Notes under the pieces: model-generated
Seen by the model: the letters and a program-made list of their open reading frames with translations, nothing else
Told to the model about the DNA's origin: nothing
Database searches by the model: none
Part shown: positions 1-8,261 of the stretch, one piece after another
How positions within the stretch are numbered: position 1 is the stretch's first letter
Layout of the letters: each line of letters starts with the position of its first letter
Assembly: GCF_024700885.2 (NCBI RefSeq)
Contig: NZ_CP117016.1
DNA: 64,000 nt
Source: Escherichia coli
Lineage (GTDB): Bacteria > Pseudomonadota > Gammaproteobacteria > Enterobacterales > Enterobacteriaceae
Direction: 5' to 3' (one strand)
Position numbers and translations under genes: made by a program

Positions 1-593
1 CACGTACTGTAAAAATTTATAACCTGCTGGCCGGAACTAATGAGTTTATTGGTGAAGGTGACGCATATATTCCACCTCATACAGGGCTGCCAGCTAATTC
101 TACAGATATCGCCCCACCGGAAATTCCTGCTGGCTTTGTGGCAGTTTTTAACAGTGAAAATGAATCGTGGAATATTGTTGAAGACCATCGTGGTAAAACG
201 GTCTATGACGTGGCATCGGGGGACGCGTTGTTTATTTCTGAGCCCGGACCGCTACCAGAGAATGTCACCTGGTTGTCGCCAGCAGGGGAGTATCAGAAGT
301 GGGACGGCGTATCCTGGGTGAAGGATGAGGAAGCAGAAAAACTGTTTCGGATACGGGAAGCGGAAGAGAAAAAGGCAAGGTTGATCCAGGAAGCAACAGA
401 TAACATCGCAATTCTGCAGGATGCAGTTAATCTTGAAATAGCAACAAACGAGGAAAATTCACAACTGGATTCCTGGAGAAAATACAGAGTATTAGTGAGT
501 AGAATTGACACCAGTACAGCTCCGGATATCGTATGGCCAGAGCTGATGAATCAGGGTTATGTGCGGGAGGACGAGCAGATAACTTCAGACTGA
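1..593 (+). CDS. Phage tail fibre assembly protein (Tfa, P2 gpG-like), 5'-truncated by window edge
   Basis: Frame open from position 3 with no stop; translation ...[35 protein letters not shown]...[21 protein letters not shown] matches Tfa family as I recall it. Confidence 0.8.
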
Positions 594-1120
594 AATTTAG
601 TGATGAATGTTGAATCATCAGGAATATCATGCAATACCAATGCATGAGCACCTATTGTGACATTGTTTCCTATACGCACTTTGCCACCAAGAATGGTGGC
701 ATTACAACCAATGGTCACATTATGTCCTATAACAATATCCATATCATTAAAATCACCACGCAGCCCAATAGTTACCCCTGGTTTTATTGAACAATTTTCA
801 CCGATTGTTACTTTGTGACCGATAACAACACTGTTGAGATAAGAAATATCAAAGCCTTTCCCTATATTTACAGTTAAAGGGACTGTTACATTATATTTAT
901 CAAGAATGAAACGTTCTATTTTCCCCGCAATCTTCCGACAGTATCCGCCTTTATCAAAAAGGTACTTGGCTATGCGCCACCAAAATAAATAACGAACTCT
1001 TCTATGTTTTATTGCGCGAACAATTGCCTTTCGCCAGGAGAAAGGACGCTCGCTACCGATTACTTCATAGTGAATACAATCTTTAAGTTCATTAATATTC
1101 ATATCTCTATTATTCAGCAT
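557..1120 (-). CDS. Left-handed beta-helix (hexapeptide-repeat) O-acetyltransferase, WcaB/CysE-like; prophage cargo
   Basis: 187-aa ORF with tandem hexapeptide repeats ([43 protein letters not shown]); visibly AT-rich; 3' end overlaps tfa 3' end by 37 nt. Confidence 0.7.
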
Positions 1121-1290
1121 AAGATAATCATGTGACCAATTATTGTAATAATTTTAATGGTATGTTTCTACTGGCTATCCAGCGCGCCTGATGTCCAGTA
1201 ACAAATCGTTAACACTAGTGCAATCAAATGGTGAGTGTTAAGACTGGCCACTTATTACCAGGTATGAGGGTATGAGTGGCCAGCATTAAA

Positions 1291-1785
1291 TCAGAACAGC
1301 CCTTTAACTGAACTGGCCGCGCTGTTAAGGGATGATGTCACTTTATCTTTGAAGCCGGACAGCATATCGCTGAACGATGAGGATTGCAGGCGCTCCCGCA
1401 AATCCTCATCACAGCGTTCAAGGGTCAGTGAAAATTCTATCTTTTTCGCCTTACCGTAGCGATCAAACTCGGAACGGGTCGTATTCGTTTCGGTCAGGAC
1501 ATACATGCCGTAAATCTGCCCGACGCCATCAATCAGAGGCCAGGGGCGTCCTGTATACGCCTGCGTGGTCAGCAGCGACAGCGACACTTCGCCACCTGTA
1601 ATTTCAGGATAAAGCACACCAGAAAGAACGATGCGATCATCACCTGCACCGATATACTGCCAGCTTGCTGAACGGTTAACGCGTTCATTTTTCACATGCC
1701 GCCAGCTTTTGTTTTGCTGTAACTGCTGATGCGGCAGCGTGCGCAGCTCAAAAACAAACATGCCGTAGATCATCATCATGGCCAT
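1291..1785 (-). CDS. Phage tail protein gpU
   Basis: 164-aa ORF; FVFELRTLPHQQLQ...VLSGVLYPEITGG...WPLIDG resembles P2 gpU; precise start among the N-terminal Met codons uncertain. Confidence 0.8.
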   Translation of the reverse strand: MAMMMIYGMFVFELRTLPHQQLQQNKSWRHVKNERVNRSASWQYIGAGDDRIVLSGVLYPEITGGEVSLSLLTTQAYTGRPWPLIDGVGQIYGMYVLTETNTTRSEFDRYGKAKKIEFSLTLERCDEDLRERLQSSSFSDMLSGFKDKVTSSLNSAASSVKGLF

Positions 1786-1791
1786 GACTCC

Positions 1792-4635
1792 TCAATCTTT
1801 ATCGTAAAAACTGCCACGCCCGGCACGGGCGCGCCGTTCCATTTCTGCCCTGACCATTTCACCGACCAGTTTCGCCAGTTCGCGGGGATTCTGCGTAACA
1901 ACGTTATGCAGATGAACATGAATTTCACCACCAAATCCGGAGGCAACAGGCTCCCGGTTACGGAAAGTTACAGGAACTGATGCCACTGGAGATCGTATGG
2001 CCTCCGCCACCGGGCGGGAGCTGGCCGCAACAACAGGGACCAGCGCCGGAGGCAGCGGAGCCGGGACCACGGGTGTGATATTAATTGCGGGGGCAGGCTT
2101 ACTGACCTGCGCAATCTTCCGCTCCTGCCACTCCCCACGAACAGCAAGTGCGCGGGGCAGGTTCTTAAAGACAATATCGCCGGGGCCAATGCGTTTTTTC
2201 GTCTCATCAACCAGCTTACCTGTGTTATCAGCAATTTTGCTGAGTCTGCGTAGCGTCCCGGTATTGCTGTCTGTGAGCGGTTTGTTGTCTTTGGGTTTAT
2301 CACCTCCGGTGCCATTGCCATTTTCCACAGGCTTCGGCGGATTGATTTTCGCCAGGTCACCCTGAAGCAAGGCAACCTTGTCCTGAAGAATGGCCGCACG
2401 CTGTGCGTCTTCGATTTTCTTGCGCGCCCTTTCCGCTTCATCCGGAAGGACGCCAAGTTTTTCAAGTATCCACGCCAGCGTATCCAGTAGCATTTTTGCA
2501 GGTGTCAGAACAAGCTGTAACGCACCGCCAAGAACGTTACCGAATATCTCGCCAGCACTGGTACATTTATCCAGCGTTTCCTTGCTGGACTCCATCGGTG
2601 ACAGCAGCGATTTAAACCAGTTAAACACCTGGCTGATCCCGCTTCCGATTGCGTCAAAAACAGGACCAAACCGTTCAAAGGTTTCGCGCAACGGGGTCAG
2701 CCTTTCCATAATCCCGCTGAACACCCCGGCAAAAAATGCCCTGATGGGATCCCAGTATTTCCAGATAAGAACGGCAGCTCCGGCAAGCGCAGCCACGATA
2801 AGACCAACCGGACTGAACAGCGCCCCGATAGCGCCTCCCAGTAAAGAAACGGAACCCGTCACCATTCCCCACAGCGCAGGCAACACCCTGACGACATTCA
2901 TTGACCGGGTAAGAATGTCGAAACCAAGACGCAGGGTGGCCAGCTTCCCGTAAAGCACCCCAATAACCAGCGACAACGAGCCAATCGTTGCAGTCATTGC
3001 CAGCAACGCACCGCCTGCTATCAGTAGTTGGCGCGTCAGTACCGGATGGGCCTGCGCCAGCGAGGTGATTTTTTCAAGCACCCGCGTGAGCCACTGCGTG
3101 ACAGAACGCAGCGGACCGTCAACCAGATCACTGATGCGAATACGAAGACCTTCCCATGCGCTGTCGAGATTTTTCAGGTCCCCATCAAGATTATCGGCCA
3201 TTACTTTTGCGACGCGATCGGCCTCTCCCCTTGCCCCCTGCAATTCTCTGGTCAGTTTTTGCAGCTCTCCTGAACCAGCCGCCGCAACAAGCGTCTGCAA
3301 ACCAACGAACGCCTCTTCTCCGGCGATGTCCTTGAAGAAGGAAACCTGGTCCACCTGTCCGTATTTTTGTGTCGCCTTATAGAGATCAAGCAGCACATCC
3401 TCCATCGGGCGCATTTTGCCTCTGGCGTCAGCAACTGACACCCCCAGCTCTTTCAGTGCATCAGCCGCAGCTTTTGGCGGTGATGCAAGGCGGGACAGAC
3501 TTGCGCGCATGGCCGTACCAGCATCGCTTCCGCGAAGACCATTATTGGCAAGCATCCCGGCCATGGCCGCCGCTTCTTCAAGACTGATACCAAGTTTTGC
3601 GGCAACCGGACCGGTATACTTCATGGTTTCGCCCAGCGCGCGTAAATCAGTATTGGTCCGGGTGAATGTTGCTGTCAGTGTATCGCCAACCCGGTCCATT
3701 TGATCGGCTGTCAGGTTGAACTGTGTGAGGATATTGGAGCCTATATCAGCCGTCTCGCCGAGTTCGACGCCACCTGCCAGCGCCATATTAAGAACACCGG
3801 GCAATGCGGCCTGAATGGCCTGCGGAGTAAAACCAGCCATTGCCAGAAAGCTCTGCCCACTGGCGGCATCACTCGCAGTAAACTGTGTTTCAGAGCCAAG
3901 TTTTAACGCCTGCTCACGCAGCGCCTTAAACTGCGGGCTGTTTTTGTCGATTCGCGTCAGTGCCTGAACGCGGGACATCTCTTTGCCGAACCCGATCGCA
4001 GGCTGCAAAAAACGCCCGGCAGCATAGCCGCCCGCCGCTGCCGCACCAATTGCCAGCGCACCACCTGTTTTCAGTTTTCCCGCTGTTTCCTGCGCGCGCG
4101 AATACCGCTCACGCGCCCGCGTTACACGCGCAAGCGCCTGCCGTTCGCGTTCAAGCTGGTTGTTGTACTGTTCGGTGCGTCTGATGGCCTGCTGGATGGT
4201 GTTATCGCTGCCTGTCAGGGAAATGCCGTGGCGTTTCAGCTCTCCGCCAAGTTCCCGCATTTTCTGAATTTCCCGTGTGCGCGATTCATTCAGGCGTTCA
4301 AGCCGGGTGCTTAACTGCTGCATCAGCTTTTGTTGTTTTTCGCTGAGCACTGTACCCGTGCGTTGTAACTGATTAAGGGCGTTAAGCTGGCGTCGTGCTT
4401 TCACGATGCCCGCATCCGCTTTACTGACAGCGTCACGGGCGCGCTCAAATGAACGCGCCTGACGCTCGAGATTTTTGATCGCCCCCTGCGTTCGCTGGAT
4501 GGAGTCACCAAACTGCCCCATCAGGCGGCGGGCGTTTTCGGCAGGCCGGGTCAGCCTGTCAACGGCGCTGAAAGCGACCCGGATATCAAGAGTCTTCATT
4601 GTCTGCATTCCCGCTGCGAAGTGCCGCCCGCTCAC
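1792..4635 (-). CDS. Phage tail tape measure protein (gpT)
   Basis: 947-aa ORF between E/E' and U, Ala/Gly-rich with coiled-coil-like N-terminal region; start codon uncertain. Confidence 0.85.
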   Translation of the reverse strand: MSGRHFAAGMQTMKTLDIRVAFSAVDRLTRPAENARRLMGQFGDSIQRTQGAIKNLERQARSFERARDAVSKADAGIVKARRQLNALNQLQRTGTVLSEKQQKLMQQLSTRLERLNESRTREIQKMRELGGELKRHGISLTGSDNTIQQAIRRTEQYNNQLERERQALARVTRARERYSRAQETAGKLKTGGALAIGAAAAGGYAAGRFLQPAIGFGKEMSRVQALTRIDKNSPQFKALREQALKLGSETQFTASDAASGQSFLAMAGFTPQAIQAALPGVLNMALAGGVELGETADIGSNILTQFNLTADQMDRVGDTLTATFTRTNTDLRALGETMKYTGPVAAKLGISLEEAAAMAGMLANNGLRGSDAGTAMRASLSRLASPPKAAADALKELGVSVADARGKMRPMEDVLLDLYKATQKYGQVDQVSFFKDIAGEEAFVGLQTLVAAAGSGELQKLTRELQGARGEADRVAKVMADNLDGDLKNLDSAWEGLRIRISDLVDGPLRSVTQWLTRVLEKITSLAQAHPVLTRQLLIAGGALLAMTATIGSLSLVIGVLYGKLATLRLGFDILTRSMNVVRVLPALWGMVTGSVSLLGGAIGALFSPVGLIVAALAGAAVLIWKYWDPIRAFFAGVFSGIMERLTPLRETFERFGPVFDAIGSGISQVFNWFKSLLSPMESSKETLDKCTSAGEIFGNVLGGALQLVLTPAKMLLDTLAWILEKLGVLPDEAERARKKIEDAQRAAILQDKVALLQGDLAKINPPKPVENGNGTGGDKPKDNKPLTDSNTGTLRRLSKIADNTGKLVDETKKRIGPGDIVFKNLPRALAVRGEWQERKIAQVSKPAPAINITPVVPAPLPPALVPVVAASSRPVAEAIRSPVASVPVTFRNREPVASGFGGEIHVHLHNVVTQNPRELAKLVGEMVRAEMERRARAGRGSFYDKD

Positions 4636-4822
4636 GCCAGCTAACCACTTCGCCGGGCGTCATCATGAAGATTTCGGCGGGCGACCAGTTAAAAATGGCG
4701 GCGATATCTGCCACCAGATCTTCGATGTGCTCAAAGCACACCAGCGTGATTACGCTGCCGTCTCCTGCACGCTCTTCGCGCCAGAGTCTGGCTCGCTCAT
4801 AAAATTTACAGCCACAGCGCAC
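4586..4822 (-). other. E' extension frame, reached from gpE by programmed -1 frameshift; overlaps the start of gpT
   Basis: -1 frame ORF overlapping the 3' end of gpE; opens just 3' of a TAA, so no independent start is expected. Confidence 0.6.
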
Positions 4823-5124
4823 AACTGAATAAAATCGCGTGACGACATTTTTTTAATCATCACTTCATCCAGTCGTGGCGAGGTCACGCGAGGCAACAGC
4901 GTGAACATGGTATCCGCTTTCAGATTCAGCACATCAGACAGCGACAGACCACGCAGGGATCCAGCCTGTTCAATAGCCCCGGTGATCTCCACATACGTGA
5001 TTTTTTCGCCACCACGCTCAATTGGTCGGGTCAGTTTTACGCCACGTTCGACAGCCATATCCTCACCTGCCGTCACATCATCCACCACGGTGTTATTCCG
5101 GGTTTCAGTATCGATGTCTTTCAT
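4750..5124 (-). CDS. Tail assembly chaperone gpE (zero-frame product)
   Basis: ORF directly upstream of the tape measure gene with an overlapping -1 frame ORF, typical of E/E'; real start may be an internal Met. Confidence 0.7.
   Translation of the reverse strand: MKDIDTETRNNTVVDDVTAGEDMAVERGVKLTRPIERGGEKITYVEITGAIEQAGSLRGLSLSDVLNLKADTMFTLLPRVTSPRLDEVMIKKMSSRDFIQLCAVAVNFMSEPDSGAKSVQETAA
4801..4807 (-). promoter_or_regulatory. Candidate -1 slippery heptamer A_AAT_TTT for E/E' frameshifting
   Basis: Minus-strand GTA AAT TTT ATG in the E frame; a -1 slip gives AAA TTT TAT GAG, continuing into the E' ORF. Confidence 0.55.
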
Positions 5125-5179
5125 CAGTTTTCTCCTTTTCAGTCAGAGGCGACGCACTGCGTCGCCTGCATATTACTTA

Positions 5180-5692
5180 TCAGCCAAGCCCGAGCGCGGA
5201 ACGGATACGGTCAGGCAAAATGTCCTTGCCGTCCTTCCGGTAGATGTGGTTCAACAGGTCGATTTCCCACAGCGGGCGATCGTTAACGCTCAGCTTGTAG
5301 TAGGTGTTTTTGACAGCGTAAGTGTGTGATGTGGCTTCGCCCTGTTTGGCTTCCCCCATATCAATTTCCGTCACACGTCCGCGCATCTCGATTTCATACA
5401 GATCGCTTTCTGCATCGGTGTAGTATTCACCCGCAAAACGCAGCAGCGTGCCGTCAATCGTGCCGCCATATTTAAGGAACAGCGCACGAACAGCTCCCCC
5501 CATAACAAAACTCGCATCAAGCGCGGAGTCGTCCAGACCGAGATCAATACTTACCGCCCCCATCATGCCACCACCACGATAGCTGTCGGTTTTGCGCGTC
5601 AGTTTGGGCGGCGTGACGGATGTCACTTTACCCACTTCGTTTTCACCATCCACAAACAACGTAAAAAAGCGAAGATGTTTTGGTACAGCCAT
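5180..5692 (-). CDS. Phage tail tube protein (gpFII)
   Basis: 170-aa ORF; its start overlaps the FI stop (ATGA), the usual FI-FII coupling. Confidence 0.85.
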   Translation of the reverse strand: MAVPKHLRFFTLFVDGENEVGKVTSVTPPKLTRKTDSYRGGGMMGAVSIDLGLDDSALDASFVMGGAVRALFLKYGGTIDGTLLRFAGEYYTDAESDLYEIEMRGRVTEIDMGEAKQGEATSHTYAVKNTYYKLSVNDRPLWEIDLLNHIYRKDGKDILPDRIRSALGLG

Positions 5693-6876
5693 CAGGCACC
5701 TCCCAGCACCGCAAATGCGGGACCAAAGAATTCATCAGTAAACGTCTGGTAAAGCTCCATGTCTTCCAGTGGCGGAACGGGCGTATATTTGTAGCGAATA
5801 CGCACACGTCCCTGACGTAAATTCGTGGTGCCGTTATCCACCACGTCATACCAGCACTCCGCGCCAATCAGTTTCCCGGCAGTAACCAGCGAATCCAGTT
5901 TTGCCCTGATGGCACTGATAACATCCTTCACGTTCGCAGGCGTCAGTGGACTGTCGATAGTTTCAAACTGCGCTTCCGCAATTGAATCAGCCAGCACCTG
6001 TGCGGTTCGGGTATACACCTCAAAGATGTAGGCGTTCGTTTCCGGTGTGCGGTTGCCCCAGAAGCGGAACCCATTGCGACGAATAATGGTCGTGATTTCT
6101 TTGTTGTTGAGGCTGTTGGCATCGCTGTCTTCGGCCTGCAACGACCAGAACACATGCCTCGACATCCCCAGCACATTTTTAACCGGAACGTTGGACAGTG
6201 ATTTGTGCCACCCCTGCTCATGGTCAATGTACGCACGAAGGCCGCACGCATAGGCAGGCGCGGGGAACGTTTCGTTTTTGCCACTTTTCGGGTTGTAGGC
6301 GATGAAGTCCGGCCATAAGAGCATCACCTCACGTTCGTTGAATTTCTGGCGGTAGGTAATCGCCTCAGCCATCGTGTTACAGCCGTGACATGAGGCATAC
6401 ACAAACGCGCGCAGTTTACCTGCAATCACGCACAGGGATTTTGTTACAGCCTCCGTGTCCAGCTCCGGCGCGGCCAGAATACGCGGACGGTATCCGATGC
6501 TTTCATCCTGCTCTGCAACAAGCAGCGCATACATCCCCGTATAGCTGCCGTCATCCTCAGAACCACCGATAACCAGTTGATCCTGCGTCTTTCCGTCTTC
6601 TTCTTTGTGTTCAGCCACGCGAACGACAATCACCTTTGTGCTCACCTGGTCTGCGATGGCCTTAAGCGCACGATAAAGCGTCCCCGTTGTCCCGCATTTT
6701 CCCAGCACGTCATTGACGCGGGTCAGCAGTGTGGGCTTGTTCAGCGGGAACAGCTTCGCGTCCGCATCATCCGCCGTTGCCACGATACCGATAACGCTGG
6801 AATCAACATCGTTAATCGCTGTTACCAGGTCGGTATTTTCCGTAACACGGGCACCATGAAAACGAGTTTCACTCAT
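5692..6876 (-). CDS. Phage contractile tail sheath protein (gpFI)
   Basis: 394-aa ORF; motifs LRAFVYASCHGC, QGWHKSLSNV, IRRNGFRFWGNRT, YKYTPVPPLE match P2 FI as I recall it. Confidence 0.9.
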   Translation of the reverse strand: MSETRFHGARVTENTDLVTAINDVDSSVIGIVATADDADAKLFPLNKPTLLTRVNDVLGKCGTTGTLYRALKAIADQVSTKVIVVRVAEHKEEDGKTQDQLVIGGSEDDGSYTGMYALLVAEQDESIGYRPRILAAPELDTEAVTKSLCVIAGKLRAFVYASCHGCNTMAEAITYRQKFNEREVMLLWPDFIAYNPKSGKNETFPAPAYACGLRAYIDHEQGWHKSLSNVPVKNVLGMSRHVFWSLQAEDSDANSLNNKEITTIIRRNGFRFWGNRTPETNAYIFEVYTRTAQVLADSIAEAQFETIDSPLTPANVKDVISAIRAKLDSLVTAGKLIGAECWYDVVDNGTTNLRQGRVRIRYKYTPVPPLEDMELYQTFTDEFFGPAFAVLGGA

Positions 6877-7033
6877 AGCTTCAGCCCCTTGTATCCGTTA
6901 AATGATTCGGCAACAATCATCACCCACCACGCGCGTAATCTCACCCCTGCGCCGTTCTCCCACCACGGCGACAACAAAAAGCAGTAACCCCCTCCGCACG
7001 CACATGCGACCATGCCGCACAGGGAGGGAACAG

Positions 7034-8131
7034 ATGACCGACACCACCATGCAATTGCTCAGTCAGGGCACAGACCCCGTGAAAATGCCGGATTTTGATA
7101 TTCTCGCGGAGGGTAAAACGCTGTCAGGCGTGACAGAGCGCCTGATGAGCCTGTCACTGACCGACAACCGGGGATTTGAGGCGGACCAGCTCACCATCAC
7201 GCTGGATGATGCAGATGGTCAGTTGCAGCTACCGCCACGGGGCGCGCGCCTGACGGTTCTCATTGGCTGGAAAGGAGAACCGCTGACAGAAAAAGGCACT
7301 TACATTGTTGATGAAATCGCTCACGAAGGACCGCCGGACAGGCTGACTGTTTCAGCCAGAAGCGCAGATTTTCGGGATGAATTTAACGTTAAACGTGAGG
7401 TGTCCTGGCATGATGTGACCGTTGAGCGTGTGGTATCCGCCATCGCTCATCGGTACGGTCTGAAACCGCAAATCAGCGAAATGCTGATGGATATCGAAAT
7501 CGACCACGCCGACCAGACCGAAGAAAGCGACATGTCCTTTCTTACGCGCATGGCGGAAATGCTGGGCGCAATCACCACGGTAAAAAGCGGTAATCTGTTA
7601 TTCATTATGCCAGGCGGTGGCGTGAACGCACAGGGCCAGCCGTTGCCATCGTTCGCCATCACGCGCAGCAGTGGCGATCGCCATCAGTTCCGCATTGCTG
7701 ACCGCGAAGCGTATACGGGGGTACGCGCTTACTGGCTTGATCTTAATTACGGGAAAAAGAAAAAAGTCAGCGTGAAACGCCGTAAACCGAAAATGGAGAA
7801 AAGCAGTAGCCGTGAAGGCGACTATATGGAAGGTGCGGAAGGCAACGTGTTTGTGTTACGCAAGACTTATCAGAACGAACAGGCAGCAAGACGCGCTGCG
7901 GCGGCAAAGTGGCAGCAGCTACAACGCGGAGCCGCATCATTCTCCATCACACTGGCACGTGGACGCGCAGAACTCTACCCCGAAATGCATGGCACGGTAA
8001 CAGGATTTAAAAGCGAGATTGATAATCAGGACTGGATTATTGCAAAAGCCGAGCACACCATTGATAACAGCGGTTATACCACGCAGCTTGAACTTGAAAC
8101 AAAAATCCCTGAATGGATTGCGCAGACCTAA
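7034..8131 (+). CDS. Phage late control / tail protein gpD
   Basis: LSLTDNRGFEADQL, SARSADFR, SWHDVT, YMEGAEGNVF match P2 gpD; ATG at 7034 is preceded by AGGGAGGGAA; the ORF track extends upstream to 6902. Confidence 0.85.
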   Translation: MTDTTMQLLSQGTDPVKMPDFDILAEGKTLSGVTERLMSLSLTDNRGFEADQLTITLDDADGQLQLPPRGARLTVLIGWKGEPLTEKGTYIVDEIAHEGPPDRLTVSARSADFRDEFNVKREVSWHDVTVERVVSAIAHRYGLKPQISEMLMDIEIDHADQTEESDMSFLTRMAEMLGAITTVKSGNLLFIMPGGGVNAQGQPLPSFAITRSSGDRHQFRIADREAYTGVRAYWLDLNYGKKKKVSVKRRKPKMEKSSSREGDYMEGAEGNVFVLRKTYQNEQAARRAAAAKWQQLQRGAASFSITLARGRAELYPEMHGTVTGFKSEIDNQDWIIAKAEHTIDNSGYTTQLELETKIPEWIAQT

Positions 8132-8146
8132 ATGGTGGGAAGATAC

Positions 8147-8185
8147 GGCACAGAGCCAACATAATATACCTGTTTGCTCTGTGCC
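8147..8185. repeat. Perfect 10-bp inverted repeat (GGCACAGAGC / GCTCTGTGCC) with 19-nt loop between convergent D and orphan gene
   Basis: Read directly; no adjacent T-run on either side. Confidence 0.5.
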
Positions 8186-8261
8186 CGAAATAGGCATCAT
8201 AAACCTAACGATGAATTGATATGCAAGATTATAAAAAATCCGCTGACATTATTTCTCATCG

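Follow-up and report, generated by a model that had tools for sequence, protein, structure and literature searches.

What does a gene that resembles an acetyltransferase do at the tail fiber end of a prophage, and does its product act as an acetyltransferase at all? The question is raised by a 64,000-nucleotide stretch of Escherichia coli DNA (the window), which matches the chromosome of strain E-1246 at 100% identity and whose start falls inside a P2-like prophage abutting ihfA-pheST. An initial annotation, made from the sequence alone, described an AT-rich gene for a WcaB/CysE-like O-acetyltransferase on the strand opposite to tfa, overlapping the tfa 3' end by 37 nt. The location and composition were read correctly, as a minus-strand open reading frame of 187 aa is present at 557..1120, the tfa stop lies at 593, and the GC content of the gene is 0.375, below that of tfa (0.46), gpU (0.51), the tape-measure gene (0.56) and the window as a whole (0.50). 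Acetyltransferases borne by phages are a familiar kind of gene, and predicted ones are encoded by 5-30% of Klebsiella prophages per K-locus (PMC13123978). Members of the present family are already catalogued as phrog_2154, and PGAP names them "transferase" or "LbetaH domain-containing protein". A search of the literature for functional studies of the family found annotations only, in which the entries read "serine acetyltransferase", "fitness factor" or "reason unknown" (PMC6456863, PMC9603915).

The reading frame is a real gene and no chance ORF. Homologs are found with E values down to 1e-120, the profile of phrog_2154 (a phage family of unknown function) is matched over its full length at E 4e-79 (residues 5-186 on profile positions 2-184 of 185), and dN/dS is 0.02-0.13 between gene copies that differ by 3-16% in DNA. 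The true start is almost certainly the ATG at 1102, which is also the PGAP start (181 aa), and not the ATG at 1120, because the latter is missing from one copy (L011) and the more distant homologs all begin at the second Met. The encoded protein is basic, with no predicted transmembrane segment. Tandem repeats or a phase-variation tract were searched for in the gene and none were found, and an Rfam search of positions 1-12000 gave 0 matches. The 37-nt convergent overlap is specific to one variant of the locus and is made by a C-terminal extension of Tfa by 15 aa; variants without this extension (L011, L042-L049) have an 11-nt gap in its place. The features of the locus are collected in the table below.

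Table. Features at the fiber end of the prophage, with window coordinates.
Feature	Position	Strand	Basis or remark
tfa, 3' part (593 nt); the full gene begins 24 nt before the window	1..593	+	phrog_105 tail fiber assembly, E 3.8e-64; PGAP annotation
Last 15 codons of tfa, a variant-specific extension antisense to the 3' end of the acetyltransferase-like gene	549-593	+	Comparison of Tfa variants
CDS of the SAT-fold hexapeptide-repeat protein, 181 aa	557..1102	-	Start corrected from a non-conserved in-frame ATG at 1120
Tyr88 codon TAT (Tyr94 in 187-aa numbering), at the catalytic His position (E. coli CysE His158)	839..841	-	Three pairwise alignments to solved SATs
Predicted sigma-70-type promoter: -35 TAGAAA, 17-nt spacer, -10 TACAAT (TATAAT in two other copies)	1142..1170	-	Consensus scan and conservation
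Spacer between cassette and gpU, specific to the P2-like backbone	1171..1290	.	Backbone comparisons
Tail gene gpU, which ends the inverted F operon and shares its strand with the acetyltransferase-like gene	1291..1785	-	phrog_76, E 5e-75; tblastn to P2 U

The fold of the protein is the part of the initial annotation that was borne out. Pfam Hexapep (PF00132) is matched twice (E 4e-6 and 2e-5), the best sequence matches among solved structures are serine acetyltransferases (SATs; E 6e-12), and the top 50 Foldseek matches to a confident predicted structure model are all serine acetyltransferases. Hexapeptide repeats, a confident model and top structural matches that all have the left-handed beta-helix (LbH) fold together place the protein in the LbH superfamily, and the helical N-domain joined to an LbH domain is that of CysE, although the N-domain is about half as long (~75 aa versus ~140). 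The fold is thus that of a short SAT, which is also found in small acetyltransferases encoded at polysaccharide loci. Neither of the outcomes that would speak against such an assignment, a best match to a phage structural protein or a model without the LbH fold, was encountered.

Membership of a named enzyme family is a different matter. The protein scores 2 to 15 times below every curated cutoff of the acetyltransferase families proposed for comparison. The EpsC model (NF041874) gives 80.7 bits against a cutoff of 150, the CysE models 70.5 against 210.65 (TIGR01172) and 44.2 against 397 (NF008349), the WcaB models 59.8 against 194.65 (TIGR04016) and 62.2 against 196 (NF007564), and the Vat/CatB xenobiotic acetyltransferase models 24-27.5 against 300-475. 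The protein therefore is an LbH protein that belongs to none of CysE, WcaB, EpsC, MAT/GAT or Vat/CatB. It is certainly not CysE, and the label "serine acetyltransferase" that it carries in many records is a naming artifact.

The active site sets it further apart. Serine-acetyltransferase-type enzymes depend on a general-base His. In three alignments to solved SATs, the stretch ISYLNS of the protein aligns with the CysE motif LDHATG, which puts a Tyr under this residue. At the positions of CysE Asp143, Asp157, His158, Arg192 and His193 the protein has Thr, Ser, Tyr, Met and Asp, respectively (the CysE residue numbering was checked on a CysE sequence). Compared to CysE (PDB 4N69, 1T3D), the His and its paired Asp of the Asp143-His158 dyad are thus replaced by Tyr and Thr, and the Asp-His and Arg-His pairs that bind serine or cysteine (Asp157, Arg192 and His193) are absent. 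CysE also differs in setting, since the gene here is phage-borne, AT-rich cargo whose product scores far below the curated cutoffs. The catalytic His was common to all LbH acyltransferases crystallized by 2011 (PMC3046976), and the protein has Tyr in place of this O-acyltransferase signature of the superfamily. Because the residue that defines the family is replaced, the name "O-acetyltransferase" given earlier was an assumption and not a reading.

The replacement is a property of a clade and not of a single copy. The residue at the catalytic position is His in 96 of 114 homologs and Tyr in 14. The Tyr group consists of the closest relatives (53-100% identity; E. coli, Providencia and Hafnia phage yong2), and every homolog at least 53% identical to the query carries Tyr. 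Among diverse cluster representatives drawn from 1.84 billion proteins, His is found in 137 of 146. Tyr also occurs in a distant full-length homolog of 191 aa (P0237), and Asn in a phage-type relative (P0134), which are separate losses of the catalytic His in other parts of the family. Outside this position the LbH core of the protein is kept, and the IGKG motif, N109 and N153 (187-aa numbering) are all present. Since this conserved core is kept and dN/dS is low, the Tyr form of the gene is maintained by selection and is not decaying.

The genomic setting departs from the one first proposed. Phage P2 has H and G, followed by fun(Z) on the other strand and by FI-FII-E-T-U-D-ogr, whereas in the window the FI-to-U block lies on the strand opposite to both G and D. 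The tail operon FI-FII-E-T-U occupies 1291-6876 (-) and gpD 7034-8131 (+), with a divergent spacer of ~160 bp between FI and D. A local rearrangement or degradation was considered as the source of the inversion and ruled out: gpD is a full-length ORF (6902-8131, +) that aligns to P2 D residues 15-378, a search for inverted repeats flanking the F-operon block found none, and the same gpU with its junction at 1286-1289 is present in more than 1,200 E. coli genome records. For these reasons the inverted F operon is native to the prophage lineage. The RefSeq annotation of gpD covers only 7343-8131 (+), plus a small upstream pseudogene fragment.

As a result of this inversion, the acetyltransferase-like gene has the 3' end of gpU, and not FI, as its far neighbor. 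The assignment to the P2 Z/fun cargo slot consequently holds in part. Like fun(Z), and as expected of P2 moron position 2, the gene lies directly after G/tfa, is convergent and AT-rich, and has its own (predicted) promoter; it is not bounded by G and FI, with which the F operon starts, and it belongs to a mobile fiber-tip/tfa cassette, as described below. In an O157:H7 sibling prophage (L016), the same slot holds a different homolog, 37% identical. In another sibling prophage, that of E. coli Ecol_AZ161 (L015 4295-6977), it holds two opposed tfa genes, a partial alternative fiber gene and a serine recombinase, which looks like an invertible fiber segment of the Mu G or P1 C kind in a P2-like phage.

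Other cargo was observed along the same prophage. Between gpD and ogr, an AT-rich ORF of 386 aa (8262-9422, -; GC ~0.32) matched nothing in NCBIfam or PADLOC and nothing in Pfam at a significant level (best E 0.24), and this region is apparently a second cargo slot. A hok/gef toxin gene (10075-10215, +) follows ogr at the prophage end and adjoins ihfA. The prophage also carries ParM and a partition protein (L001 3305-4580), which is unusual for a P2-like phage.

Among 5,426 complete E. coli genomes, 183 have the gene, and plasmids account for 57 of its places. Every context that was opened has the same order, in which a tail fiber gene and tfa are followed by the convergent acetyltransferase-like gene, and four backbones carry it: the P2-like prophage (including those of O121 strains), a 47-kb RepA phage-plasmid that is the same element as phage vB_EcoM-613R2, a ~99-kb P1-like phage-plasmid, and a prophage of a different type, located by yfhH. 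Pairwise comparison of the four backbones reveals a shared block of 84-97% nucleotide identity that runs from ~670 nt before the window to 1171-1190. This cassette of ~1.84 kb comprises the last ~215 fiber codons, tfa, the gene, and 50-70 nt upstream of the gene. Plasmid records in PLSDB agree, with the 3' half of tfa and the gene found together in 58 of the 59 records that match. The idea of a cargo gene specific to one slot was thus not upheld, as the gene moves with the fiber tip and tfa as one cassette across unrelated backbones. The -35 element TAGAAA marks the exact point at which the four backbones become homologous, and the -10 element is also conserved, so the cassette appears to bring its own predicted promoter.

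The border of the block also carries a hint of its path. On the 47-kb phage-plasmids and phage vB_EcoM-613R2, the cassette is accompanied by the spacer that otherwise marks the P2-like backbone and by ~90 nt of the gpU 3' end (L008 4190-4282; L002 30-280). Because of this gpU remnant beside the cassette, the comparison suggests that a P2-like phage of the inverted lineage was the source of the block on the 47-kb phage-plasmids.

The linkage extends beyond the closest relatives. In a survey of gene order on 80 viral contigs that encode relatives, a convergent Tfa ORF lies at most 54 nt away in 53, and at least 6 more have a convergent tail fiber or baseplate gene, for a total of at least 59 of 80. 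Among Tyr-type loci with enough flank, 34 of 35 have the convergent Tfa ORF at -36 or +11 nt; among His-type loci (33-48% identity), one lies within 54 nt in 19 of 44. Of 10 further loci that were tested, six have a convergent tail fiber or baseplate gene, one has an integrase, and three are without a PHROG family match. Citrobacter phage phiNP and the P1-like phage JL22, both of the His type, share the arrangement, and the JL22 relative sits within the cin-invertible fiber segment. ESSI2 phages are an exception in that the gene adjoins the integrase. These gene orders indicate that the linkage to fiber and Tfa is older than the change from His to Tyr.

A second allelic cassette was also recognized, with a His-type homolog 37% identical to the query and a different Tfa C-terminus. 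It is common to a P2-like prophage remnant of O157:H7 NE92 (L016 5688-6849) and the P1-like phage-plasmid JL22 (L006 3927-5069), which are 91% identical over 1,143 nt. Outside phages, the closest His- and Tyr-type relatives (L012, L014) lie in non-phage or unclear contexts and offered no functional lead. One of them, a His-type relative ~50% identical, is the first of three tandem hexapeptide-repeat genes on a non-phage chromosome (L014 5001-6697, Enterobacteriaceae bacterium BIT-l23).

The fiber tip that is inherited with the gene provides a clue to the process in which the protein might take part. The tip matches the receptor-binding tip of T4 gp37 (PDB 2XGF) at E 5.9e-88, and its identity to T4 gp37 and lambda Stf is 66-69%. 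The receptors of such fibers are OmpC and/or the LPS core. Hosts of the gene have many serotypes, including O121, O139 and O166, and also include APEC and ETEC isolates. Because they span so many serotypes, a conserved target is favored over any single O-antigen, which argues against classical O-antigen seroconversion.

Tentatively, and at somewhat short of an even chance, we favor the reading that the gene encodes a modifier of a conserved envelope glycan that is expressed in the lysogen and changes phage adsorption. The gene would be a moron expressed from its own predicted promoter, and its product a soluble, probably trimeric, cytoplasmic protein of the SAT-type LbH fold. The protein might act at the cytoplasmic face, through an acyl-CoA-dependent change to the precursor of a conserved envelope glycan such as the LPS core, enterobacterial common antigen or colanic acid. 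Such a change would alter the adsorption of phages with the kind of tip that is co-inherited, and so could exclude superinfecting phages or keep progeny off debris. The reading is held no more firmly because the steps past a SAT-fold protein in a fiber cassette, namely acyl transfer with Tyr in place of His, an envelope glycan target and an effect on adsorption, are ones that we infer, and because the catalytic base is missing.

Several considerations weigh against this proposal in addition to the Tyr that replaces the general-base His of the family. The end of the tail fiber operon is a general hotspot for morons, and the adjacency of the gene to the fiber tip could be positional. OmpC, the likely protein receptor of this tip class, is not plausibly modified by a cytoplasmic LbH enzyme. 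Also, the known enzymes that O-acetylate the LPS core or LOS are membrane-bound and belong to a different family, acyltransferase_3.

A variety of known systems resemble parts of the proposed mechanism. The short polysaccharide acetyltransferases WcaB and EpsC are of like size (~160-185 aa), share the SAT-like LbH core, and act on cytoplasmic polysaccharide intermediates, which is the type of target proposed here. They differ in that the protein reaches only 60-81 bits against their cutoffs of 150-196 and its gene lies outside any polysaccharide cluster, and WcaB presumably has His at the catalytic position. The closest functional precedent is another LbH protein encoded by a prophage, the polysialic acid O-acetyltransferase NeuO of prophage CUS-3; it acetylates the capsule of K1 strains and confers protection from K1 phage (PMC3046976, PMC13001214). 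The 5' heptanucleotide VNTR and the catalytic His/Trp of NeuO are both lacking in the gene described here.

Precedents of position are also known. The neaT gene of CFT073, which occupies this P2 moron position in the same orientation, encodes an acyltransferase that changes surface behavior (PMC3573123). Like fun(Z) and neaT, the present gene is convergent after G/tfa and AT-rich, as non-essential cargo would be. The folds are unrelated, since NeaT belongs to the acyltransferase_3 family and lies in the membrane and Fun(Z) is a protein of 528 aa, and here the far flank is gpU instead of FI and the gene travels with the fiber tip between phage types. A similar genetic logic is known from llp beside pb5 in T5 and from cor in phi80 and N15, where a gene that disables the receptor is kept by the receptor-binding gene and co-inherited with it. 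Blockers of the Llp/Cor type are small lipoproteins that bind FhuA directly, whereas the protein here has the fold of a cytoplasmic enzyme and its effect on a receptor is hypothetical.

Four other explanations and the literal reading of the database label must be weighed. The one that survives best, though we consider it unlikely, is that the protein is a pseudoenzyme that has lost acyl transfer and works by binding alone, for example by sequestering a nucleotide-sugar or lipid-linked intermediate, or by binding a host or phage protein as an LbH trimer. The uniform Tyr of all 14 homologs at 53% identity or more counts in favor of this explanation, the Asn of the related phage-type P0134 points the same way, and the strong purifying selection indicates a protein that is still used. 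It fits less well with the retained LbH core (IGKG, N109 and N153), and the independent Tyr of the distant P0237 suggests a tolerated catalytic variant and not decay. Some LbH N-acetyltransferases (QdtC and WlbB) work without a catalytic base, which also speaks against equating the loss of His with the loss of activity. Contacts to CoA are mostly made by backbone atoms and leave no signature in the sequence.

A rather improbable alternative is that the gene serves intracellular defense or counter-defense, unrelated to any receptor, at the G-side fun(Z) hotspot of P2, and acts on a component of incoming phage or on a host metabolite. Position and orientation are those of fun(Z), which is annotated as blocking T5, and an AT-rich gene with its own predicted promoter on many phage backbones would suit such a role. 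However, none of the PADLOC-DB 2.0 models was matched at E up to 0.01, and the gene travels along with the fiber tip and tfa instead of staying fixed at one hotspot. We know of no defense effector with an LbH fold.

Similarly improbable is an N-acetyltransferase or acyltransferase that acts on an amino sugar or small molecule, possibly a xenobiotic or antibiotic, by chemistry that needs no general base. The scores of 24-27 bits against Vat/CatB cutoffs of 300-475 count against a xenobiotic substrate of that kind, and the overall fold, including the helical N-domain, is of the SAT type and not of the XAT or PglD type.

We regard it as very doubtful that the protein is an accessory or assembly factor acting on the fiber or on Tfa. 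This explanation would account for the tight linkage to tfa and the fiber tip and for the JL22 relative within the cin-invertible fiber segment, and the gene shares a strand with the F operon, from whose gpU it is separated by no more than a weak terminator-like hairpin (1297-1315). Yet the gene is always convergent with the fiber operon, its predicted sigma-70-type promoter is separate, its base composition is foreign, and most phages that have a tip of this class lack it. Finally, a true serine O-acetyltransferase that raises cysteine synthesis in the lysogen can be all but dismissed, since the top sequence and structure matches and the database names that point to it are outweighed by the scores on both CysE models (70.5 bits against 210.65 and 44.2 against 397), the replacement of all five CysE residues (Asp143, Asp157, His158, Arg192 and His193 by Thr, Ser, Tyr, Met and Asp), and an N-domain of about half the CysE length.

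A bolder form of the adsorption-modifier reading can be formulated, which we consider speculative and unlikely. Each fiber-tip/Tfa allele might be accompanied by a cognate SAT-fold "immunity" protein, in a relationship like that of toxin and immunity but for adsorption, with the Tyr clade representing either a new Tyr-dependent or base-free LbH acyltransferase or a binding pseudoenzyme that masks the receptor pathway. The Tyr-type and His-type cassettes, each with its own Tfa C-terminus and both common to P2-like and P1-like phages, are compatible with such cognate pairs.

Three aspects of the locus seem to be new so far as could be found: the gene is part of a mobile fiber-tip/Tfa/promoter cassette on unrelated backbones, its clade has Tyr for His throughout under strong purifying selection, and its product fails membership of every enzyme family named in its annotations. 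Prophage acetyltransferases are common and few have been tested, and this gene is routinely mislabeled as a serine acetyltransferase. The conserved Tyr at the place of the catalytic His poses a question for enzymology, namely whether it reflects new chemistry or a pseudoenzyme. If the protein does modify the receptor of the linked tip, then a single unit would spread both the receptor specificity and the exclusion that goes with it, across P2-like phages, P1-like phages, and other phages and phage-plasmids. Such a unit would have a bearing on host-range prediction, on the use of phages in therapy against E. coli, and on the reasons why fiber modules are mobile.
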